From the NCBI GenBank assembly GCA_043821645.1, contig JBDRCO010000016.1, positions 1 through 14,141 on the forward strand: a stretch of 14,141 nt of DNA, in the 5' to 3' direction. This document shows positions 1 to 11,492 of this stretch, piece after piece. This DNA is from Pseudomonadota bacterium. Its GTDB lineage: Bacteria > Myxococcota > JACRCW01 > JAFGSX01. The position numbers and the translations under genes are program-made. The notes beneath the pieces were generated by a model. That model had not been told where the DNA came from, did not search any database, and saw nothing but the letters and a program-made list of their open reading frames with translations. Position 1 is the first letter of the stretch. Each line of letters opens with the position of its first letter.

Positions 1-223
1 CGGGCGGCTGGTGCGGCTCACCCTCGGCGAGGGCGGGCTCGTCCCCCGTCGGGGATTTCCATGGGTCGTCGGGCGCGGGGACGATGAGATCTCGGATGCT
101 CGAGCGCGGCGCCAGGCAGCCGTGGTAGCGCGTGAGGTTGAAGCCCTTGGGCGGCACCAGGGCGGCGAGTCGACCCAGGAGCTCGCTCGCGCTGAGCACG
201 ATGTGCGTGGTGCCGTCGTCCCG

Positions 224-295
224 GCTTTCCAGGGGGCGTCGGCCGCCCCCTCGCGTCGCCGGCACAGGTCCGACGACGGTTCACCCCGGCAGCAG
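224..295 (-). mobile_element. 72-nt double-hairpin mini-insertion E3 (absent from transposase copy B)
   Basis: Copy B reads aag aga aaa tgg gcc gac ggc. Copy A has 72 extra nt between aag and cgg gac gac ggc. Stems are CGTCGTCGG/CCGGCGACG and AGGGGGCG/CGCCCCCT. GCTTTC is repeated at 224-229 and 295-300. Confidence 0.8.
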
Positions 296-391
296 CTTTC
301 TCTTCAGCCGGAGCAGGAGCTCGTCGTCACCGAGCCAGCGCAGGCGGTGATTGGCGAGCGGGGGGCGGAGCACGTAGCGGCACAGCTCCGA

Positions 392-463
392 TGTTGTGAA
401 GGGGGCGTCGGCCGCCCCCTCTGCCGACGGGCGCAGGTCCCGTCGACATTCACCCTGGCAGCA
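392..463 (-). mobile_element. ~72-nt double-hairpin mini-insertion E2 in transposase copy A
   Basis: TGCTGCCAGGGTGAA-TGTCGACGGG/CCCGTCGGCA-G-AGGGGGCG/CGCCCCCT-TCACAACA. It lies between the GFSLHAARR block and ELCRY and shifts the frame. The adjacent AT-rich stretch 464-476 may belong to it. Confidence 0.8.
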
Positions 464-515
464 CTATTTTTGTTTGCTCGGGCCGGGCCCTTCTCGCGGC
501 GTGCAGGGAGAAGCC

Positions 516-585
516 TGCTGGTTGGGTGAGCTTGTCGGGACCCGTGCCCGGCAAGCGAGGGCCTGCCCGACAGGCCCTGACAACA
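516..585 (+). mobile_element. 70-nt double-hairpin mini-insertion E1, inserted antisense to transposase copy A
   Basis: TGCTGGTTGGGTGA-GCTTGTCGGG/CCCGGCAAGC-G-AGGGCCTG/CAGGCCCT-GACAACA. Removing 516-585 restores the frame (LCFAL-GFSLHAA). Confidence 0.8.
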
Positions 586-1342
586 CAGCGCAAAGCACAG
601 ATCGCCGGTGCGCTGACCTGCGGTGGGGTCGGAGAGGACCCTGCGGATGCGGCGGCCCGCCCGTTCACCCGTCGCCGCGATCCCCTGCACGCTGGCCTGG
701 AGCAGGCCGGCCAGCACCGGTTCCTCCTCCGACAAGCGGTCCGGAGTGTCCACGCCGTCGTCGAGGACCCCGCGCCGCACCAGCAGCCGGATCACCCGGC
801 CGGCGATGACCTCGACCAGCCGCTTGATCTCGCCATCCGACGGCGGTGGTGTCTCCACGAACAGCAAAGGCTCGCCCATGCCGTCGCCGACGTAAACGCC
901 GTCGAGCAGCAGCGAGTGGAAGTGCGGGGCAAGCCTCAGGTCCGAGTTGGCGCGCTGGATCACGGTGATGGAGCCGGTGCGGCCGCTGGCGTGCCCCATT
1001 GTCCGTGCGCGCCGCCGGTACCATACCGACACCGCTCGCAGGAAGACCGCCAGCACGTCGGAGCAGAGCGCGCCGTCATAAGCCAGCGTGTAGCGCGTCG
1101 CCGACGAACCCACCTGTCGGTTTCCCCAGGCTCACGCGTTGACTGAGAGAACGCGAAGGTGAAAGTTCTCGGCGATTGACCGCTCAGGCGCGCTGGCTGC
1201 CCGGCGTATGGGGATTCGTCTGACACCTTTTCTTGAGCACGCGCAGCCGCTGTGTGCATCCAGACCACGCGGGCACTCTACGCCTCGCCACGGCCCGTGG
1301 CAAAAGGCCCGCGCATGCCTGGCGCGCGAAAGCGCCCGCCGT

Positions 1343-4300
1343 TCACGGCACCGCGAGCGACCACAGCTCGGTTCCGATCTCCCCGTCATCGGCAAAGAAG
1401 TAGAGCCGGTCGCCGAGGACGATCGGCCACGACGGCGAGGCGCTCGCGCTGCCTGGCGCCAGGTCGTAAACGAGGTGACGGCTGTCGAGATCTTCGTCGA
1501 GGATCCACAGCTCCTGCCCGTGCAGTGCGTCGGAATCGGCGAACACCTGGCGCCCCTGGAAACCGGCGCGGTCGCCCATGGTCGTGGTGAAGAGGGGGAC
1601 CGGCCCGTCGGTCGCCTCGTCGTAGCGCCACAGCGTCCGGATCGCATTCGAGTCGAGGGCGACGAAGTAGACGCGCGGTCCGATCGCAAAGGCGCTCAAC
1701 AGATCGTCGAAGTTGAGCGTCGTCGTCAACCGCGTGCCAGGCTCGCTGCCGTCGGAGCGCCAGATCCGGCTTCCTGGATACACCCGGCCGAGCACCAGCA
1801 CCTCGGCTCCGAGACCGAGGATGCTGGTGGAGTTCAGCAGGGTGCTGAGTGTGGCGATGCGCCCCGTGCCCGTGCCCGAGCCATCGCTGCGCCACAGATC
1901 GCCGCCGGCGATGAACCACAGCTGGCCGTCGATGAGCGACAGCGCGCTGATGCTGCGCGCCGCGGACCCGGCCGCCGTCTCGGCGACCAGCCGCGTGCCT
2001 GGCACGGTGCCGTCGGTGGCGTACAGCTCGTAGCCGGTCGCCGCGGTGTAGCCGTTGAAGAAGGCCTCGTCGCCGAGCGCGACGACGTCGCCGAGCACCG
2101 GGAGGAGCGCGTAGGTCCCCGGCTCGGTGCCATCGGAGCGCCACAGGGTGGCGCCCACCGCAACGTAGAGCAGGCCGTTGATGGACCGCAGCCTGGAGAG
2201 GCTGCTTCCGCCCGACCCCGCGGTGACGTCCTTGACCATGGCGGTGCCGCTCGTCGAGCCATCGCTCGACCACAGCTCGCTGCCGTGAACTCCGTCGTCG
2301 CCGATGAAGAACAAGGTCCCGCTCACGTCGGTCAGCCCCGAGAGCGAGACAAAGGGCAGGATCGGCACCGTGCCGGTCGCCGTGCCGTCGCTGCGCCACA
2401 GCGCGGGCCCGACCAGGCCGTCGCTGGCCGCGAAGAAGAGGGAGCCTCCGCTCACCGCCGCGCCCGTCGGGCTGCAGCCCTGCTCGGCGATGTTGATATC
2501 GACGAGCAGGTGCGTGCCCTGGCTCGTGGCGTCGCTGATCCACAGTTCCTTGCCATGAACCGAGTCGAGATGGGCGAGGAACAGGGTGGCGCTGCTGGCG
2601 CCGAGCAGTGTCGGCGCCGTGCCCATGGCGACGACTTGGGTGGCGTCGCTGAGATCCGGGTGCAGTCGCCACAGCCCCAGGCCGCTGCCCGCGGTCGCCA
2701 CGACGTAGCGGTCGCCCTGCCACTGGACAGGCCTCGACGGGTTGGAGTTGCCGGCGCCGGCCTCGATGTTCTTGACCACGTGCGTGCCGCTTACCGTGCC
2801 GTCGCTGGTCCACAGCTCGGTCCCGGTCGCGACCATATTGGCCGAGAAGAGCAGGTTCGACCCGTCGCTGTGGAGCCACGGCATGCCGCTGAACGTCGCG
2901 GAGACGAGCGAATACGTCCCGTCGACCGTGCCGTCGCTGCGATAGAGGTAGAACCCGGACACGCTCGGGCTGGCGAAGAAGAAGACCAGGCCGCCCACGC
3001 TGACAGGCCCGGCCCAGTTCTTGCCGGTGGGGGTATCGGGCAAGAGCTGCAGCAGGCCGCCAGACGTTCCGTCGGTGCGCCACAGGCCGTTGAAGTTGAA
3101 CCCGTTGTAGGTGAAGAAGAGGTGGCTGTCGGTGGCGGCGAGATTGCGCGCCTCATGGATGTCCTGCTGGACGACCACGCGCGTGCCTGCGGGCGTGCCG
3201 TCGGTGCAGTACACGTGGGTCGAGGTGAAGCACAGCTCGTTCTTGAAGACTGCCGTCGACCATCCTCCGAAGCGGTAGATCGACGCCACGGCGGTCGTGC
3301 CAACCACCGTGCCGTCGCTTGTCCAGAGCTCGCGCCCCATCCACGAGGTGTGCGTGAAGTAGACACGGTCGCCAAATCCGACGGCCGAGCTCAGATCGCC
3401 GGCCTCCGGGCCAGCGGTGAAGTCGCCGAGCATGAAGGTTCCAGCCGTGGAGCCATCGCTGCGCCACAGCTCGCGGCCGTGCTCGCAGTCGTCGGCGAGA
3501 AAATACGCGATACCCCGGTGCACCGCGAAGCCGTAGGGCCAGGAGCCGACGGCGCCGGGGCAGATGTCGCGCACGAGCCGGGTCCCGGCCTCGGTGCCGT
3601 CGCTGACCCACAGCTCGCGGCCTATCCCCTTGCTGCTCGCTCCGAACAGCAGCCAGTCGCCGACGACCACCCCACCCGGATCGGACCCGACGGCCGCAGG
3701 CTGGACGTTGAGGTTCTTGACCAGCTCGACCGAGGGCCAGGCGCTGCAGGTGTCGGTGTCTTGCCAGTGTCCCAGGACGCAGCGACGGGTCATGCGGCCA
3801 TCGAAGCCGCAGCGCAGATCGCCGTCGGCGACGGTGCCGTCGACGCAGACATCCGGGTCATCGCAGAGCGCCGAGTCCTGCCAGAAGCCGTTCACGCAGT
3901 CCTGGATCAGGTGGCCGCGGTCGTTGAGCCCGCACCCGGTCGTTCCAACCCGCGAGCCGCTGTCACCGCACCAGCCCGCGAGGTCGCCGGGCGCAGCGTC
4001 GGGCGCGCTCGCGCTGTCGGCTGCGCTCGCGGCGTCGGACGCGGTCCCGCCCGCATCCGCCGACGGCGCGTCGTGCACACTGGCCTCGAGAGCCCCGGCG
4101 TCGGCCGGCGACACCGCGTCGAAAGGCGACACCACGTCGGCCGTCGACATGGCATCGGGAGACGACACGGCGTCGGCAGACGACAGCACGTCCGCCGTCG
4201 CGGAGTCCAGGGTCGCGCCATCGCCTGGCACCCAGGCGTCGATCAAGGCCGCGTCCGCTCCGTCCGAGGCTGCCGCGTCCAGCGAGGTCGCCCCATCCTG

Positions 4301-4567
4301 CGCCGTCGCATCCGCGGCGACGGTGTCGGCGTTCGACGCGTCCAGGTCCTCGACGTCAGCGGCCGCGCCGTCGGCCGCCACCGCGTCGGGGGTCGAGCCG
4401 TCGGCGATCGCGGCATCCTGTGCCGCGGCATCGGCGGGCTGAGGAGACGTGGCGTCGCGGCCCGTGCGTCCGGGATCGCAGGACCCGCAACCTTGCAGGA
4501 TCAGGACGCAGGCGGCGATGCCGGATCCCCACGCCGCCGGTCTGCGAACGTCTGCGCCGCTCTGCAT
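1343..4567 (-). CDS. ELWxxDGT-repeat lipoprotein, 1074 aa: signal peptide II, Asp/Ala-rich linker, two Cys-rich repeats, many ELWxSDGT repeats
   Basis: Lipobox-like VLILQG-C at Cys27; repeated GRELWVSDGT, GRELWRSDGS, GTELWTSDGT and GSELWSSDGS; purine-rich GAAGGGGG upstream of the ATG. Confidence 0.92.
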   Translation of the reverse strand: MQSGADVRRPAAWGSGIAACVLILQGCGSCDPGRTGRDATSPQPADAAAQDAAIADGSTPDAVAADGAAADVEDLDASNADTVAADATAQDGATSLDAAASDGADAALIDAWVPGDGATLDSATADVLSSADAVSSPDAMSTADVVSPFDAVSPADAGALEASVHDAPSADAGGTASDAASAADSASAPDAAPGDLAGWCGDSGSRVGTTGCGLNDRGHLIQDCVNGFWQDSALCDDPDVCVDGTVADGDLRCGFDGRMTRRCVLGHWQDTDTCSAWPSVELVKNLNVQPAAVGSDPGGVVVGDWLLFGASSKGIGRELWVSDGTEAGTRLVRDICPGAVGSWPYGFAVHRGIAYFLADDCEHGRELWRSDGSTAGTFMLGDFTAGPEAGDLSSAVGFGDRVYFTHTSWMGRELWTSDGTVVGTTAVASIYRFGGWSTAVFKNELCFTSTHVYCTDGTPAGTRVVVQQDIHEARNLAATDSHLFFTYNGFNFNGLWRTDGTSGGLLQLLPDTPTGKNWAGPVSVGGLVFFFASPSVSGFYLYRSDGTVDGTYSLVSATFSGMPWLHSDGSNLLFSANMVATGTELWTSDGTVSGTHVVKNIEAGAGNSNPSRPVQWQGDRYVVATAGSGLGLWRLHPDLSDATQVVAMGTAPTLLGASSATLFLAHLDSVHGKELWISDATSQGTHLLVDINIAEQGCSPTGAAVSGGSLFFAASDGLVGPALWRSDGTATGTVPILPFVSLSGLTDVSGTLFFIGDDGVHGSELWSSDGSTSGTAMVKDVTAGSGGSSLSRLRSINGLLYVAVGATLWRSDGTEPGTYALLPVLGDVVALGDEAFFNGYTAATGYELYATDGTVPGTRLVAETAAGSAARSISALSLIDGQLWFIAGGDLWRSDGSGTGTGRIATLSTLLNSTSILGLGAEVLVLGRVYPGSRIWRSDGSEPGTRLTTTLNFDDLLSAFAIGPRVYFVALDSNAIRTLWRYDEATDGPVPLFTTTMGDRAGFQGRQVFADSDALHGQELWILDEDLDSRHLVYDLAPGSASASPSWPIVLGDRLYFFADDGEIGTELWSLAVP

Positions 4568-5904: not shown

Positions 5905-6001
<97 letters not shown>

Positions 6002-6122: not shown

Positions 6123-7265
6123 TCATGGCGCCTCCTCCCCCTGCCCGCCTGCGAGCAGGGCGTGGATGGTGTCCGCAGCCCGCCGCTGCCGGCTGGCCAG
6201 GACATGCGCATAGATGTTCGCGGTGGTGCTGGGCTGGCTATGTCCGAGCACGGCAGCGACCTCCACGACAGGGACACCCGCTGCCAGCATCAGCGATGCT
6301 GCCGAATGACGCAAGTCATGAACTCGCAGCGCGCCGATCCCGGCCTCGGCAGCGATCACCTGCAGGCTGTCCCAGAGGCGTCGAGAGTCCAGCGGTGTGC
6401 CATCGGGCGAGGCCCAGACCAGGTGGCCCCAGCGCTCGCCCTGCCAGTCCGCACCGGCCTGCGCCGCCTCGAGCTGCTGCTCGGCCTGGCGCTGCTCGAG
6501 CGCCCGCAGCGCGAAGTCTGGGAGCGCTATCACACGCTCGCGGCCCGTCTTGGTGGGCTGCTCCTCCCAGTGACCGCGTATGCGCTGCAGGCTGCGACGA
6601 ATGCTGATCTCACCCCCGGTCAGGTCGACATCCTTCCACTGCAGGCCCGCCGCCTCGCCCCGGCGCAGCCCGAGCGCGAGGATGACCAGCCAGATGGAGC
6701 CGCCGGGCTTCTCCTGGGCGGCCTTGAGGAGCGCTCGCGCCTCGGCCTCGGTGAGAGCCCGCGGCCGCTTCTCGACGCCGACCCGCGGTGGCTCCACCGC
6801 GAGGGCCACGTTGCGGTGGACGATCTCCCAGCGCATGGCCTGGTTGAGCGCCGTCCGCAGCACGGCCCGGATGTGCAGGACGCGGCGCGCGGAGAGGCCC
6901 CGCTTCAGCCTGTCGTCGAGGACGTCTTGCACGTGTTGCGGCGTCAGCTTGCCGAGCGGGATGTGGCCGAGGGTCGGCTCGAGGTGCAGCCGGATGATGT
7001 CGTCGTAGCTCTCGAGGGTCCGGGGGCGCAGCCGCTGCTCCTGGTGGCTGTACCATCGCCTCAGGAAATCGCGCAGCTTCTGGCTGTTGTCGCCAAGCAC
7101 ACCGTGCTCTCGCTCCCGGTGCATCTTCTGCAGTGCCTTGCGGGCGTCCTGCTGGCTTCTCGCGTAGCGGGTGACACGCTTCTGCCCGTCGCGCAGGGTC
7201 GCCACCCAGCGCCCGTCGCTGCGCTGGTAGATGCTGCCCTCCCCGTGGCTTCGGCGACTGCTCAT
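6123..7265 (-). CDS. int: Tyrosine recombinase / site-specific integrase, 380 aa
   Basis: N-terminal GEGSIYQRSDGRW arm-binding motif; catalytic residues in GLRRGE, TKTG, HDLRH, LGH and TTANIYAH. AGGAGG precedes the ATG at 7265, so that start is preferred over 7331. Confidence 0.95.
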   Translation of the reverse strand: MSSRRSHGEGSIYQRSDGRWVATLRDGQKRVTRYARSQQDARKALQKMHREREHGVLGDNSQKLRDFLRRWYSHQEQRLRPRTLESYDDIIRLHLEPTLGHIPLGKLTPQHVQDVLDDRLKRGLSARRVLHIRAVLRTALNQAMRWEIVHRNVALAVEPPRVGVEKRPRALTEAEARALLKAAQEKPGGSIWLVILALGLRRGEAAGLQWKDVDLTGGEISIRRSLQRIRGHWEEQPTKTGRERVIALPDFALRALEQRQAEQQLEAAQAGADWQGERWGHLVWASPDGTPLDSRRLWDSLQVIAAEAGIGALRVHDLRHSAASLMLAAGVPVVEVAAVLGHSQPSTTANIYAHVLASRQRRAADTIHALLAGGQGEEAP

Positions 7266-7339
7266 GCGACCGCATCCTCCTGGGCTCTTGGCGCTAGAAT
7301 ACACGCCGCACCAGACGACGCTGTGCTCCAATGCGCGCG

Positions 7340-7440: not shown

Positions 7441-7452
7441 CTACGTTGGGCC

Positions 7453-7761
7453 ATGGTCGCGCTCCCTGTCCTGCTCACCCCGGCCGAGATGGGCGACACG
7501 CTCGCCGCCCGCTGCCGCGAGCTGCGTCTCTTCAGGAACTGGAGCCGTGGCACGCTGGCCAAGCGCGCTGGGGTCACGGTCGCCTCCCTCAAGCGCTTCG
7601 AGATCGAGGGCAAGGCCTCCCTGGAGTTGCTGCTCAGGGTGGCGCATGCCCTGGGCCGCCTCGACGAGTTCGCGTCCGTTCTGCTGCCGCCCAGGGCGCA
7701 GAGCGTGGCCGAGCTCGAGGAGCAGGTCGAACGCCCCCGGCGCCGACGGGGCCGCTCGTGA
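7453..7761 (+). CDS. XRE-family HTH protein, HipB-like antitoxin, 102 aa
   Basis: RELRLFRNWSRGTLAKRAGVTVASLKRFEIEGKASLELLLRVAHALG is a Cro/C1-type HTH; its stop overlaps the downstream hipA-like start (GTGA). Confidence 0.9.
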   Translation: MVALPVLLTPAEMGDTLAARCRELRLFRNWSRGTLAKRAGVTVASLKRFEIEGKASLELLLRVAHALGRLDEFASVLLPPRAQSVAELEEQVERPRRRRGRS

Positions 7762-9089
7762 GGAAGCTCGAGGTCCGCTTCACCCGCAGTAGCGACGACG
7801 AGCGAGTGGTCGGTACGCTCGCCGAGGATCGCGGTCGCACGTATTTCGAGTACGCGCCCGCGTTCGTCGAGACGGGCCTGAACCTGTCGCCCCTGAAGAT
7901 CCCCCTCGAGACCGGTCTGTTCGAGCACCGGGACCTAGCCTTCGGCCCTCTGCCCGGCCTGTTCGACGACTCCCTGCCCGATGGCTGGGGTCTCCTGCTC
8001 ATGGACCGGCATCTCCGGTCCCTGGGATTCCCGCTCGCCGAGGTCCATGCCCTCGACAGACTGGCCTGGCTCGGTCGCCGCACCATGGGGGCCCTCACCT
8101 ATCACCCGCCCGCGGAACCGGCGGAGACCACGGCGCGCTTCCTCGACCTCCAGACCCTGGCCGAGCACGCCCGGCAGGTACTCGAGGGCAAGGTCTCGGA
8201 GGTGCTCCCCGAGCTCGCACGCGCCGGCGGCTCACCGGGCGGAGCCCGGCCCAAGGTCCTGGTGGGCTTTGACCCGGGCGAGGAGCGGCTGCTATCCGGA
8301 GCCGACGAGTTGCCTGAAAGCCACGAGCACTGGATCGTGAAGTTCACACCTCGCGGCGAGGGCGACGACGACGGAGCCATCGAGTACGCCTACGCGCTCA
8401 TGGCCAGAGCCGCCGGGATCGCCATGCCGGCCTGCCGCTTGTTCGAGACCTCGACGGGCGACCTATTCTTCGGGGTCCGGCGCTTCGACCGGGAGCGCGG
8501 CCGTCGGCTCCACATGCACAGCTTCGGCAACCTCATCCACAGCAACTTCCGTGTCCCCTCGCTGGACTACGCGGACCTGCTCAAGGTGACCTCGGTCCTG
8601 ACCCACAACCACCAGGACGTGATCGAGGTGTTCCGGCGCATGGTCTTCAACGTGCTCGCGCACAACCGCGACGACCACGTGAAGAACTGGGCCTTCCTGC
8701 TCGACGACGGAAGCGGCGAGTGGCGACTCTCTCCGGCCTTCGACCTGTCGCCCAGCTCGGGGCCAGGCGGCGAGCACTCCATGACCGTGGCCGGCGAGGG
8801 CAAGAGCCCCCAGCGCGAGCACGTGAACGCGCTGGCGAAGAGCGCAGGCATCGGCAGGGCTGGCAGGGACGAGATCGTCGATCAGGTCACGGCGGCCGTG
8901 CGGAGCTGGCCCAGGTTCGCGCGGAAGGCTGGCCTTGCCAGGGAGAGCGTCGCCAGGGTCGGCGAGATGCACCTGTGGACGAAGAGCAGCAGCAGCTCCA
9001 GGGGACGCGCTCCCGAAGGGAAGTCCACGGCGACAAACGCGTCGCGCGGGCCGAGGACGCCGTCCGCGAGCCGATTACGCAAGCGCTGA
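7758..9089 (+). CDS. hipA: HipA-family kinase toxin (type II TA), 443 aa
   Basis: N-terminal couple domain (VGTL...FEY...LSP...DSLPDGWG); GGSPGGARPK P-loop; WIVKF; EYAY; RRFDR; NRDDHVKN; LSPAFDL. GTG start at 7758 overlaps the antitoxin stop. Confidence 0.92.
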   Translation: MRKLEVRFTRSSDDERVVGTLAEDRGRTYFEYAPAFVETGLNLSPLKIPLETGLFEHRDLAFGPLPGLFDDSLPDGWGLLLMDRHLRSLGFPLAEVHALDRLAWLGRRTMGALTYHPPAEPAETTARFLDLQTLAEHARQVLEGKVSEVLPELARAGGSPGGARPKVLVGFDPGEERLLSGADELPESHEHWIVKFTPRGEGDDDGAIEYAYALMARAAGIAMPACRLFETSTGDLFFGVRRFDRERGRRLHMHSFGNLIHSNFRVPSLDYADLLKVTSVLTHNHQDVIEVFRRMVFNVLAHNRDDHVKNWAFLLDDGSGEWRLSPAFDLSPSSGPGGEHSMTVAGEGKSPQREHVNALAKSAGIGRAGRDEIVDQVTAAVRSWPRFARKAGLARESVARVGEMHLWTKSSSSSRGRAPEGKSTATNASRGPRTPSASRLRKR

Positions 9090-9155: not shown

Positions 9156-10205
9156 TCACTCCTCCGTTGGCGCTCGCTGCACCAGGCGGCTGCGCAGGGC
9201 TGCGAGCTCCTCGCCGAGTTCGAGCGCGGAGCGATACCGGTCCTCGGGGTGCGGCTCCAGCAGCTTGAGGAGAATCCCGTCCCACTCGGGGTCGATGTCC
9301 GGCCGCACAGTCGTCGGGAGGGCCGGCTGGGTCGATGCGTGCCTGAAGTAGTCTTCCGCTGCTGCGGTGCTGCTGAACTCGCCGTAGGGGTACGTGCCCA
9401 GCAGGAGCCAGTAGAGCGAGACCCCGAGCGCGAACAGATCGGAGCACTGGTCCCCGAGCAAGCCCTGCTCCAGAAACAAGCCCAGGACCTCCGGGGCAAT
9501 GAACGGGACAGTGCCGATGGCCACGCCAAAACCCGTGATGTCCGAGCCGGGCAGGCTGACCACGCCGAAGTCGAGCAACTTGGCGATCGGAGCCCCGGCA
9601 GCGTGCTGGAAGACGATGAAGTTGTCGGGCTTCACGTCGCGATGCCAGACCCCGCTCGTGGCGTGGACGGCAGCCAGGGCCGAGGTCATCTGGATCGCGC
9701 ACTCGAGCAGCTCGAGTTCCTCGAACGGACGGCCCTCCTGCTCCAGCCTTTCCCTGAGGGCACTGAGCGATTCGGAGCGCTCGTGATACTCCATGACATA
9801 GTAGGCCGCGTCGCCGTGTTCCCCGGCGTCGAAGACACTCACGACATTGGGGTGATTGATCCCGGCTGTGACCTGCGCCTCGCGGTTGAAGCGCTGCTTG
9901 GATATCTCCCCCAGGGACTGGCGATCCTCGAAGGGATCGAACTTGCGCGTCTTGATCGCGACGCGTCGCTTCAGGTTCAGATCCTCAGCCAGGTACACCA
10001 CCCCCATGCCGCCGTACCCGATCTTCTTCACCACCCGGTAGCGCCCCGCGATCGTTTCACCGCGCGCCAGAGCTCCCGGTGGACGATGGTCTTGACCGCT
10101 GGTCCGTCCACCGGAGGTAGGTGTCTGCGCAGCCTCGTGAGTGTTGCTGCCCTCGACCTTCTCTCTCCTCTTGCTGCGTGGCGCATCGGGGGCGGTCTTC
10201 TTCAC
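9156..10205 (-). CDS. Hanks-type (PknB-like) Ser/Thr protein kinase, kinase domain only, 349 aa
   Basis: GYGGMGVVY, VAIK, alphaC Glu (REA), HRDVKPDN, DFG, GTVPFIAPE, DLFALG, PEDR; AGGAG before the GTG; no transmembrane or sensor domain. Confidence 0.95.
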   Translation of the reverse strand: MKKTAPDAPRSKRREKVEGSNTHEAAQTPTSGGRTSGQDHRPPGALARGETIAGRYRVVKKIGYGGMGVVYLAEDLNLKRRVAIKTRKFDPFEDRQSLGEISKQRFNREAQVTAGINHPNVVSVFDAGEHGDAAYYVMEYHERSESLSALRERLEQEGRPFEELELLECAIQMTSALAAVHATSGVWHRDVKPDNFIVFQHAAGAPIAKLLDFGVVSLPGSDITGFGVAIGTVPFIAPEVLGLFLEQGLLGDQCSDLFALGVSLYWLLLGTYPYGEFSSTAAAEDYFRHASTQPALPTTVRPDIDPEWDGILLKLLEPHPEDRYRSALELGEELAALRSRLVQRAPTEE

Positions 10206-10717
10206 GGGAGCTGCTCCTGCTCGTTTGACATCGCGGGTGGTCCGGCCTTGAACCCATCATTCTGACATTGCCGGGTGGTCTTGACATCTCGGACGTCGTG
10301 CATTCATCGCTCGTCTTGACGGGCGCAGGTGCGGGCGACCTCGCCTCCCTGGGAACGGCCTGCGGCGGTTTTGAGGCTTCTGGAGTGGTGGAGTAATGCC
10401 ACATCATATCAACATGCGGACTGAGGGCGAGGTCGCTGGCCGCAACCGCACATCACGCCAAAAACCGATCCATGGTGGGGAGCCCGGTGGGGGGCGTCTG
10501 GGTGACGTCGGTTGATGGGGTCGCGCGTCTGGCGGTTCTTGATTGGACGAAGGTCCGGTGCTCCTCCCCTGCTGCTCTACCTCGCGTCGCGGGCACCTGC
10601 GAGACGCTCAGCACATGCCCCGGATGTCCTGCTCCAGCTCACGCCAGCCGCCGCATCCGCAAGATCCTGTCCGACCCGGCGCCGGGCCAGCGCACCGGTG
10701 AGCTGTGTTTCGCCCGG

Positions 10718-10787
10718 TGTTGTCAGGGCCTGTCGGGCAGGCCCTCGCTTGCCGGGCACGGGTCCCGACAAGCTCACCCAACCAGCA
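10718..10787 (-). mobile_element. 70-nt mini-insertion E1' (identical to E1)
   Basis: Exact reverse complement of 516-585, at the same position in the transposase. Confidence 0.8.
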
Positions 10788-10839
10788 GGCTTCTTCCTGC
10801 ACGCCGCGAGAAGGGTCCGCCCGGAGCAAACAAAAATAG

Positions 10840-10913
10840 TGCTGCCAGGGTGAATGTCGACGGGACCTGCGCCCGTCGGCAAAGGGGGCGGCCGACGCCC
10901 CCTTGGAGCAACA
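10840..10913 (+). mobile_element. ~74-nt mini-insertion E2' (near-identical to E2)
   Basis: Matches 392-463 apart from one substitution between the hairpins and a different 3' tail (GGAGCAACA vs CACAACA). Confidence 0.8.
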
Positions 10914-11492
10914 CCAGGAGCTGTGCCGCTACGTCCTGCGACCTCCTCTTGCCAACCACCGACTGCGCTGGCTGGGTGACGACGAACTCCTGCTCGCGTT
11001 GAAGAGAAAATGGGCCGACGGCACCACGCACATCGTGCTCAGCCCGTCGGAGCTCCTGGCTCGACTCGCCGCCCTGGTGCCGCCCAAGGGATTCAACCTC
11101 ACGCGCTACCACGGCTGCCTGGCGCCGCGCTCGAGCGTGCGAGATCTCATCGTTCCCGCGCCGTCCGCACCCGACGAGCCCGCCCAACTCGACGACGACC
11201 CCGAAAAGTCCCCGAAGGGGGACCGCGTTCCCGAGCCACCCGTCGCCGTCCCGGCGCGCCCGCGCAGGATCCCCTGGGCCGAGCTACCACGGAGAGTGTG
11301 CCGCGGCACTCGCGATGGCATCTGGCAGGCGCAGACTCGTCTGCTCGGCCCTTGCAAGCACGCGGCGCGGCCTGCCAACCTGAAACACGACATACACGTG
11401 GGTCGCAGGCAGACCCGGGGCAGGGCAGGCTGAGCCCCGACCGGTCCAGGCCACCACGACCACCCGGGTGCCCACCACAGGGAGCGAGACAG

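Follow-up and report, generated by a model that had tools for sequence, protein, structure and literature searches.

A lineage-restricted double-hairpin repeat family, probably of small non-autonomous mobile elements, in uncultured myxobacterium-like bacteria

The window analysed here, a stretch of DNA of 14,141 nt taken at its full length, carries several sequences of about 70 nt that fold into two hairpins and lie within remnants of IS91-like transposase genes. The locus raises the question of what these sequences are and whether they are aimed at such genes. They are probably members of a family of small, non-autonomous mobile DNA elements of the REP/MITE/RPE kind. This repeat family is restricted to one lineage, two genera within a single family of uncultured myxobacterium-like bacteria, whose genomes carry about 100 copies each.

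Copies in the window and their empty sites

A covariance model detected five copies in the window at 62-79 bits, the next best match reaching 10 bits. Copy A (215-296, minus strand, 69.3 bits) is followed by copy B (384-465, minus strand, sense to the transposase pseudogene, 78.9 bits) and by copy C (514-594, plus strand, antisense to the pseudogene, 63.1 bits), which is a clean 67-nt insertion. Copies C' (10709-10789, minus strand, 62.3 bits) and B' (10838-10919, plus strand, 77.8 bits) are the paralogs of C and B in arm I1 of an inverted duplicate. The places and strands given in the sequence-only reading, in which A, B and C lay at 224-295, 392-463 and 516-585, were borne out when the sequence was read again, and the motif TGCTG-N3-GGGTGA was found five times against 0.01 expected, a number reached in 0 of 200 shuffles. 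The two stems, the loops ACCYGYG and SCCGA and the single T-G wobble of each first stem, located on the TGCTG strand, could all be read directly. In copy A the order is the TGCTG-N3-GGGTGA head, hairpin 1, hairpin 2 and a purine tail of 9 nt.

The five copies are present as claimed, but they are not independent. An IS91-like transposase fragment is duplicated in inverted orientation (about 90%) at 72-656 and 10647-11162, with 86-93% complementarity across three arms (I1-I3), so only three insertions are represented, with B corresponding to B' and C to C'; the cores of C and C' are identical (63/63 nt). The 52 nt between B and C (464-515) lie outside any element and align with the uninterrupted IS91-like copies on contigs C77 and C71. 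This spacer is therefore original IS91 sequence, B and C are two separate insertions, and a single composite MITE made of B, spacer and C was rejected. The CAACA tail that had been ascribed to the element also aligns with uninterrupted IS91 sequence of C77 and C71 and is unconserved in a 43-copy alignment; it is not a feature of the unit.

The left host is an IS91-like (Y2 HUH) transposase pseudogene (2-1113, minus strand), recognised by Pfam Y2_Tnp and by paralog alignment and interrupted by C, B and A, with frame shifts across the insertions and one in-frame TGA. Its segment 104-391(-), which holds the TGA, matches Y2_Tnp positions 108-178 (E 1.3e-12), and segment 589-1113(-) gives a weak match to model positions 1-32 (E 0.0065). 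The right host (10647-11430, plus strand) is a C-terminal fragment only, carrying C' and B' without A; its segment 10903-11430(+) matches Y2_Tnp positions 109-178 (E 4.8e-16), and in BLAST comparisons to C71 and C77 the likeness to other copies stops near 11290. All IS91-like genes seen were partial. In an Rfam search of the window the only match was tRNA-Sec.

The paralogs supply the sites before insertion. Copy A is confined to the left IS91-like copy: its 74 nt are missing from the right copy, C77 and C71, which have AT in their place, and one metagenome contig joins 222 to 297 with the same AT between. For B, C77 and C71 are uninterrupted and metagenome contigs contain C without B, and for C both paralogs have an empty site. 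The metagenome contigs may derive from paralogs or relatives and were not counted as allelic polymorphism. A fourth insertion, D, occurs in five IS91 copies (C5, C15, C77, C112 and C139) and has uninterrupted counterparts in paralogous IS91 copies. The element thus enters as a whole unit without a consistent target duplication. At its junctions the element has taken the place of a few target nucleotides (AT for A, CTCGAG for D); C and D lack a duplication, whereas B possibly has a degenerate flank repeat of 9-10 nt and A one of 6 nt. Across 83 copies the longest flank repeats were distributed as in shuffled pairings. A, B, C and D occupy four different IS91 places in both orientations with no common target motif, which does not fit targeting of the IS200/IS605 type. 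The element is also unlike the IS91 ends (oriIS/terIS), since the conserved end region past the transposase stop codon, aligned from C15, C77 and C112, contains no head or hairpin motif and was matched by the covariance model only at insertion D.

Anatomy and fold of the unit

The unit measures 65-76 nt and consists of a YGCTG-N3-GGGTGA head, a variable hairpin of 9-10 bp, a linker of 2-3 nt, an 8-bp G+C hairpin with a CCGA loop and a purine-rich, Shine-Dalgarno-like tail. The 5' end is precise, always (Y)GCTG, whereas the tail varies from 4 to 12 nt. Tails are often A-rich, many end in TAG or CAG, and the consensus starts with G-TGCTG. The only terminal inverted match is of 5-6 nt (TGCTGC...GCAGCA) and is found in a minority of copies.

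The stems are kept by compensatory change. Among 43 copies of the own genome such changes were found in 15 of 17 pairs. In the second genus (49 copies) 14 of 17 pairs change on both sides and 96% of the cells are paired; none of 500 shuffles was as good, and slid controls reached at most 50%. The covariation that the sequence-only reading had seen among three variants therefore holds in both genera.

In each of the five window copies, the strand bearing TGCTG has a fold that is 2-6 kcal/mol better than that of the complementary strand. Over both genomes G-T wobbles outnumber A-C mismatches by 32 to 13 (binomial p 0.007, for copies that share ancestry); in the own genome alone this bias is modest (17 vs 9, p 0.17). 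The orientation of the element to neighbouring genes is even, with 47 heads and 48 tails facing a stop codon. Taken together, the G-T bias and the even orientation indicate that the element itself, rather than transcription, determines which strand folds. Orientation relative to local GC skew gave no signal (20 to 20 and 13 to 18), a test that was uninformative because the genes themselves split 1032 to 988 and skew does not mark the strands here. The earlier proposal of a selected single-strand structure with conserved unpaired motifs, carried by a non-autonomous mobile unit, is supported by the empty sites, the covariation and, as described below, the identical unlinked copies and the presence or absence at orthologous sites of the two genera.

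Distribution and genomic context

With the covariance model, the own genome gave 103 copies, and the sole other genome of the family, that of a sister genus, gave 87. Of 39 further relatives from this class or phylum, 38 had none and the last had one weak match (E 8.9e-5). A scan of 185,579 species genomes with the 18-nt head word turned up only 17 isolated, scattered matches, close to the number expected by chance; one of them, in Polyangia (L017), was rejected as it lacks the hairpins. The earlier reading had recognised no known family, and this one is absent from Rfam: no match was obtained at gathering or permissive thresholds, the best for positions 180-640 being 18 bits (E 0.9). A literature search on repetitive extragenic palindromic, RAYT and REPIN elements returned no relevant paper for Myxococcus or Myxococcota, and the main text of PMC3733652 contains no mention of Myxococc, Deltaproteobacteria or Sorangium.

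The element has been gained and lost between paralogs and between genera. At 16 syntenic sites occupied in the sister genus, the own genome has 13 empty sites, two with the element and one with a remnant of the head. The cores at C23:20405 and C70:106210 are identical (65/65 nt), and 13 pairs at separate sites differ by no more than 2 nt, 12 of them on different contigs and one including the dnaX copy. Head-to-tail arrays with periods of 71-81 nt occur on C23, C36, C51, C63 and C96; inverted arrangements comprise the B/C pair of the window, which is made of separate insertions, and three composite loci. Half-models found no long autonomous element with separated head and tail halves, only nested short composites, the 3' half-model being too weak (29 hits) for this use. 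A genome-wide regular expression for CCGA-loop hairpins was dropped, as it was swamped by chance matches in a genome of 70% G+C.

It had been claimed that the elements are found only inside IS91-like transposase genes. This is true of the window alone. Of 99 copies, 66 are intergenic, 22 touch the end of a called gene and 11 lie in called ORFs, counts that rest on crude GC3-based gene calls covering 80% of the genome; with the same crude calls, element ends face a stop codon 95 times and a start codon 58 times. The element persists where its harm is small: beside stop and start codons, a few nucleotides away, between the genes of operons, within decayed IS91 copies and, with the frame kept, in protein loops. 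Operon-spacer copies are found between rpoB and rpoC, in ribosomal operons and in the ATP-synthase operon. In the sister genus rpoB and rpoC overlap, while here they are separated by the element. Among 11 tightly flanked copies none splits a gene and seven are in sense orientation; in five of these seven, 7-13 nt separate the purine tail from the start codon downstream of it, as at rpoC, rplW, atpC and exbD. Samples in which the lineage is present come from groundwater, biofilm and aquatic sources. None of the public runs listed as containing the stretch is on record as RNA and RNA run X16 gave no match, which has no bearing on expression.

Three copies lie in frame inside intact dnaX, valS and hsdM, where they add inserts of about 21-26 residues that are absent from orthologs; the dnaX insert has 24 residues and is missing from four orthologs. 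The protein domains of the three carriers are intact. The sister genus has two more in-gene copies, in a urocanase and a DUF2229 gene. All five keep the frame open and stop-free (3 of 99 copies examined here, 2 of 43 in the sister genus), a result that is suggestive but not proof because the ORF-spanning screen was biased towards open frames.

Mode of spread and rival explanations

Several known repeat systems resemble the element. REP, BIME and REPIN elements with RAYT transposases are described from Enterobacteria and Pseudomonas (PMC3733652; see also PMC3116915 and PMC3337134). According to PMC3733652, a REP unit is a single short palindrome of 20-40 bp bearing an unpaired GTAG or CGTC tag immediately at one of its ends. 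The likeness extends to tens to hundreds of copies, compensated hairpins, a position mostly between genes near 3' ends, clusters or arrays, occasional in-gene copies, the lack of a target duplication and a vertical, lineage-restricted spread. In contrast to REP, the element has two unlike hairpins in its unit and a fixed head of 16-19 nt, no GTAG or CGTC tag stands against either stem in 43 aligned copies, and its arrays are mostly head-to-tail, not the inverted doublets of REPIN. PMC10969869 and PMC3733652 present RPE as a palindromic selfish element of Rickettsia. In that account RPE lies in frame in unrelated intact protein genes, adding a short peptide, and also between genes. The in-frame inserts in dnaX, valS, hsdM, urocanase and DUF2229 genes agree with this, in way of life and not as a sequence family: lineage and sequence are different, RPE-1 is twice as large, genes contain only about 3% of the copies here, and the present element has a tail resembling a Shine-Dalgarno sequence and often occupies the spacers of operons. 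The original report of RPE reportedly dates from 2000.

IS200/IS605 ends and PATE have a hairpin close to either end and are expected to be cleaved some 10-20 nt beyond these hairpins, following a strand-specific single-stranded-DNA logic without target duplication. The element likewise has subterminal hairpins at both ends and lacks a target duplication, but there is no conserved 4-5-nt target at its left end (the flanks of A, B, C and D differ) and no Y1 gene carries its ends. BOX elements are modular, with variable module numbers and modules larger than those of the present element. Modularity and variable module numbers are shared (here an optional 5' module comes before the head and the two hairpins, and hairpin 2 is sometimes duplicated), as is the lack of a known transposase, whereas sequence and host are unrelated to the BOX elements of Streptococcus pneumoniae, which are named in PMC10969869. 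A classical MITE, as a deletion derivative of a DDE insertion sequence, would differ in having a target-site duplication of fixed length, of which the flanks of 83 copies gave no sign. The family is new, of an already known REP/RPE-like kind.

Whether the genome's own RAYT (Y1 HUH) transposase moves it as an ordinary REP/REPIN family was considered, and is very unlikely. Copy number, intergenic 3'-end position, in-gene copies and hairpins match the REP picture of PMC3733652, and a RAYT-like gene is present on contig C32 (NF047646, 63.8 bits, below the 80-bit cut-off). This gene, however, is boxed by a different inverted repeat family of about 29 nt, which has dispersed inverted pairs of its own. 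None of the four Y1_Tnp genes of the own genome has an element nearby, and the sister genome (82% complete) gave no Y1_Tnp match despite its 87 copies, nor any match to the Y1-like protein of C3; the missing tag and the two unlike hairpins speak against REP as well. The earlier suggestion of a REP/PATE-like HUH substrate can be retained in the sense that the element works like one, while the lack of the tag, of a cognate RAYT or Y1 gene and of a fixed target argues against membership. Among candidate small nuclease partners, DUF559 is absent from both genomes. The single GIY-YIG match of the own genome lies in a 713-residue frame that is probably UvrC, and the sister genome has one such frame, of 107 residues. 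No partner transposase carrying the element ends was found in searches of either genome.

An explanation that is unlikely, yet less so than the other rivals, takes the unit as a functional RNA motif, a set of portable protective hairpins with a Shine-Dalgarno-like tail that the cell keeps to stabilise or tune neighbouring messages; mobile spread would be compatible with it. The closeness to stop and start codons, the sense orientation of most tightly flanked copies and the spacing of their purine tails agree with such a role, and the G-T bias fits RNA as well as single-stranded DNA. The even orientation at stop codons is unexpected for a strand-specific RNA signal, though, most orthologous sites are empty in the other genus, copies also lie in pseudogenes and within coding sequence, and no Rfam family corresponds to it. 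A weaker candidate, which would be surprising, is that the genome captured some small, structured and abundant nucleic acid, for instance a small RNA after reverse transcription or a retron-type msDNA, through end joining or target-primed reverse transcription. It is read from the junction anatomy: the precise 5' end against a variable, often A-rich tail, the replaced target nucleotides and the missing duplication. No master copy or promoter was recognised, and tandem head-to-tail arrays and nested composites are atypical of retroposition. The earlier proposal of a hyper-parasite, or of an anti-transposon system of the host, directed against IS91-type transposase genes is highly improbable. 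It draws on 10 of 99 copies, from four independent insertions, lying in about 7.5 kb of IS91-like DNA, or 0.1% of the genome, where by our own arithmetic they are roughly nine times as dense as in that fifth of the genome which is non-coding. Yet about 90 of the 99 copies are elsewhere, the two IS91-like loci examined in the sister genus hold none, and the insertions show no common place, orientation or target. Dead insertion-sequence copies are among the few neutral landing sites, a simpler account of the excess, and they also multiply their passengers, as seen for D. The presence of copies between genes and in frame in essential genes argues against an anti-transposon system, so that an attractive but wrong reading is corrected. 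Hardly credible is a mini-intron or translational-bypass element removed from messages. The G-TGCTG start, the TAG or CAG tail ends and the copies inside essential genes recall one, but all in-gene copies are open-framed, no tightly flanked copy splits a gene, a unit of 65-76 nt matches no intron model, and most copies are intergenic; the earlier mention of this idea is accordingly disfavoured.

For the preferred mobile DNA element, movement may proceed as a folded single strand, that of TGCTG. An enzyme acting in trans, most likely one of the HUH type that works on single-stranded DNA, would recognise both hairpins as well as the unpaired motifs GCTG, GGGTGA and CCGA, which are invariant, and the accumulation in IS91-like genes would reflect a neutral landing ground and not targeting. 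A more specific proposal, doubtful at present and slightly more so than the RNA motif, is that the double hairpin is mobile without a RAYT or a recognisable transposase of its own and enters transiently single-stranded DNA, its ribosome-binding tail re-priming the downstream gene. Entry into single-stranded DNA would account for the excess in rolling-circle IS91 copies and for the landing at the overlapping rpoB/rpoC junction, and with its tail the element could separate essential genes that overlap or are coupled while translation of the downstream one is primed anew. If this were true, a selfish element would bring along the signal that renders its own insertion harmless.

The family adds well-supported structured mobile DNA from a barely sampled lineage, with unusually clear covariation in two genera and clean before-and-after sites, such as the rpoB/rpoC overlap pulled apart and the in-frame inserts in dnaX and valS. 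As the same genome has a separate pair of RAYT and repeat, the element provides a test case of how repeats spread when no transposase is dedicated to them. In annotation, masking is possible at about 100 sites per genome, and the additional 21-26 residues in three proteins should not be taken for domain novelties.

The element family and its fold

All five copies proposed by the sequence-only reading were located in the window: A at 215-296 (-), B at 384-465 (-), C at 514-594 (+), C' at 10709-10789 (-) and B' at 10838-10919 (+). The head motif TGCTG-N3-GGGTGA occurred five times, compared with 0.01 expected, and a covariance model built from 43 of the own-genome copies scored them at 62-79 bits, against at most 10.4 bits in the remainder of the window. 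The host genome comprises 7.07 Mb in 140 contigs (~70% G+C), and the window is the entire contig C16 (JBDRCO010000016.1). A simple motif search and two nhmmer rounds gave 82 and then 99 copies in this genome, and the covariance model found 103 (E ≤ 0.01). With the same model, 87 copies were detected in the sister genus, the only other genome of the family (82% complete). The other 39 genomes searched, which belong to the same class or phylum, had no copies except for a single weak match in one of them. An 18-nt head word occurred only at chance level across 185,579 species genomes. The element matched nothing in Rfam, and literature searches on REP/RAYT/REPIN repeats and myxobacteria found no description of it. 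It is a new family, but the kind of small, structured mobile DNA to which it belongs is known.

The head, YGCTG-N3-GGGTGA(A), is followed by hairpin 1 (9-10 bp, loop type ACCTGCG or ATTCACT), a linker of 2-3 nt, hairpin 2 (8 bp, loop around CCGA) and a purine-rich tail. The core, from the head to the end of hairpin 2, spans 59-67 nt (mode 65), and tails with known junctions measure 4, 9, 9 and 12 nt. The unpaired GCTG, the G-run of the head, the closing pairs and CCGA are invariant or nearly so. Loops of the ATTCACT type are complementary to the head sequence GGGTGAAT, which makes an alternative pairing possible. About 14 copies carry an optional 5' module of ~45 nt ending in TTGACAG (...GAGGTGTCCTTGACAG), immediately 5' of the head (for example C22:51852-51895, C5:45383-45430 and C95:1810-1852); it contains a TTGACA hexamer, but by eye no -10 box at the proper spacing. 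Some copies are arranged head to tail in arrays with a period of 71-81 nt, others carry hairpin 2 twice, and nested or composite forms also occur.

RNAalifold, applied to the 43 own copies, predicted exactly the two hairpins first described, with at least one double change in 15 of the 17 pairs. A better test was made with 49 sister-genus copies absent from model building: 96.0% of cells were paired, compared with 76.3% in shuffles, and two-sided changes were found in 14 of the 17 pairs. On none of the five measures did any of 500 shuffles do as well, and pairing in slid controls fell to 32-50%, the alignment having been fitted to the model. The proposed covarying fold is strongly supported in both genomes. 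G-T/T-G pairs outnumbered A-C/C-A mismatches by 17 to 9 here and by 15 to 4 in the sister genus (pooled 32 vs 13, p 0.007, among copies that share ancestry), and the TGCTG strand folded better in all five window copies. To a modest degree, this bears out the earlier proposal that the folding strand can be told from its wobbles.

Insertion events and mobility

An IS91-like transposase fragment (Pfam Y2_Tnp) is present twice in the window in inverted orientation, at 72-656 and 10647-11162, the duplicate having arms of 151, 93 and 258 nt that are 86-93% complementary; the left transposase copy covers 2-1113 (-) and the right copy 10647-11430 (+). B and B', as well as C and C', are therefore paralogs, and the five window copies are not independent events. 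Copy A is an additional 74 nt in the left fragment only. Alignment of both fragments with the IS91-like copies on C77 and C71 showed the A, B and C sites to be uninterrupted in these two, and the 52 nt separating B from C to be IS91 sequence. A, B and C are three genuine insertions, each 67-74 nt long. Five other IS91 copies (C5, C15, C77, C112 and C139) contain a fourth insertion, D, within their C-terminal coding part; the C71 copy has the empty form. Metagenome contigs, which may be paralogs or relatives, hold IS91 copies with C but without B as well as empty A and C sites, and fit an insertion order of C, then B, then A.

Comparison of the flanks revealed no regular target duplication. A few target bases were replaced at A (AT) and D (CTCGAG), C was clean, and B may have a degenerate flank repeat of 9-10 nt. 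Contig C16 terminates within the IS91-like copy; its left end (657-1235) is a repeat mosaic, with 757-1096 being 88% identical to C63:68241-68579 and 1096-1235 being 94% identical to C128:8426-8565. The assembly probably broke on these repeats.

Forty sister-genus loci with the element were fetched, and 16 could be placed here by both flanks at one site. Thirteen of these sites lack the element, two are occupied (C87:312278 and C69:13084) and at one (C23:204756) there is a head remnant. One pair of unlinked copies has the same sequence across 65 nt. A difference of at most 2 nt was found in 13 pairs located at separate sites, 12 of which span different contigs; the dnaX copy and one on C49 form such a pair. 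During the orthologous-site comparison another repeat class of this genome was seen, in which the intergenic C123:14145-14455 and C111:85810-86025 are flanked by opposed runs of a 6-7-nt GTTCCC/GGGAAC-like unit.

Sites between and within genes

Gene calls were our own and crude, based on long ORFs with high third-position G+C (4,280 calls, 80% of the genome). By these calls, 66 of the 99 copies lie between genes, with 22 touching a gene end and 11 inside a called ORF, so the element is not confined to transposases, contrary to what had been supposed. Eight of 87 near-full copies lie within ORFs. In this set the tail side points to a convergent gene's stop codon in 48 copies, at a distance of at most 10 nt in 19 of them, and to a same-strand gene's start in 29; on the head side the neighbour is a stop in 47 copies and a start in 29. 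Where tails were read, the convergent stop codon typically stands 11-12 nt beyond hairpin 2. Several copies abut tRNA genes.

The excess in IS91-like DNA is real, but not exclusive. Ten of the 99 copies, from four events, lie in about 7.5 kb of such DNA (0.1% of the assembly), a density far above uniform expectation and about ninefold that of the genome fifth without gene calls. An anti-transposon system, as first suggested by the concentration in transposase genes, was rejected: the four insertions share neither site nor orientation, and the element is absent from the two IS91 loci examined in the sister genus. Insertion-sequence copies that have decayed offer neutral ground and also copy their passengers; a mechanistic link by way of rolling-circle intermediates, which are single-stranded, is conceivable.

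The family offers some instructive insertion sites. Eleven copies are tightly flanked by same-strand genes, and comparison of the neighbours with Pfam showed that all 11 stand between two different complete genes: rpoB/rpoC, rplD/rplW, atpG/atpD, atpD/atpC, exbB/exbD, a histidine kinase and its sigma-54 regulator, an acyl-CoA dehydrogenase and an enoyl-CoA hydratase, and four further pairs. The sister genus has no element between rpoB and rpoC, which overlap there, GTG and TGA sharing bases; two more relatives show the same arrangement. The copy here is therefore a lineage-specific insertion, at a junction that is among the genome's most constrained, and its tail now provides a purine tract 7 nt upstream of the rpoC start.

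Three own-genome copies are embedded in long open frames whose third-position G+C is high on either side of the element. DnaX has intact domains, domain III being divided into two stretches, and a 24-residue insert that is missing in the orthologs of four relatives, the sister genus among them. Valyl-tRNA synthetase has ~26 extra residues in a loop after the conserved WYIEL motif (missing in three relatives), and the type I methylase HsdM has 21-26 (missing in two). Each of these three elements runs antisense to its host gene, and it is the same frame of the element that is read in every case. Two of 43 sister-genus copies examined are also in frame, one antisense in a urocanase gene and one sense in a DUF2229 gene, whose orthologous site here is empty. 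Residence of this kind within genes is described for Rickettsia palindromic elements and intragenic REPs in passages of PMC10969869 and PMC3733652. The valS frame (5' part, C133:1355-1700) opens with ~80 residues of low third-position G+C, and its tRNA-synt_1 match begins at model position 185; this part, upstream of the region studied, may be frame-shifted or misassembled.

Candidate mobilising enzymes and surroundings

In the mechanism that we favour, the element would move via a single-strand DNA intermediate, which an HUH-type enzyme supplied in trans would recognise. This is suggested by the hairpins near both ends with their fixed unpaired motifs, the absent target duplication, the wobble bias tied to the element's own strand and the unbiased direction of neighbouring genes (47 vs 48). 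The insertion sites share no target motif, which argues against the IS200/IS605 variant of this mechanism. The genome holds four Y1 (IS200-like) genes, none with an element close by, and the sister genome (82% complete) gave no Y1_Tnp match. The IS91-like genes seen are all fragments, and no resemblance was found between the element and the IS91 end region. Neither DUF559 nor small GIY-YIG nucleases are available as partners in this genome, and both were rejected.

One of the Y1 genes (C32:2393-3493) resembles REP-associated tyrosine transposases (NF047646, 63.8 bits, below the cut-off). It is flanked on both sides by an inverted A+T-rich repeat of its own (~29 nt), which also occurs in inverted pairs 80-110 nt apart on six other contigs (C9, C5, C29, C118, C53 and C112). 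Gene and repeat are a separate transposase-repeat pair, of the kind termed TIR-associated in a passage of PMC3733652. One copy of this repeat (C5:45613-45641) adjoins an element cluster. Three diverged paralogs of 360-522 residues (C3:61095-62177, C63:72199-73299 and C128:6774-8342) have a weak central Y1_Tnp domain (22-30 bits); none was found in the sister genome with the query used. The C128 paralog adjoins an IS91 fragment and the C63 paralog lies ~3.6 kb from sequence resembling window 757-1096.

The inverted IS91-like fragments enclose ~10 kb with a tRNA-Sec gene (5909-6001, (-), Rfam 78.6 bits), directly beside it a phage-type tyrosine integrase gene (6126-7331, (-)), and genes for a HipA-family kinase (7446-9086, (+)) and a Ser/Thr protein kinase (9159-10205, (-)). 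The stretch therefore looks like an island integrated at tRNA-Sec and bracketed by IS remnants. A 1,074-residue open frame at 1343-4567 (-) consists of many diverged repeats of a ~42-48-nt motif (direct-repeat families D1-D8). It had no Pfam match at E 0.01, and its repeated peptide may resemble the ELWxxDGT-type repeat of myxobacterial surface proteins.
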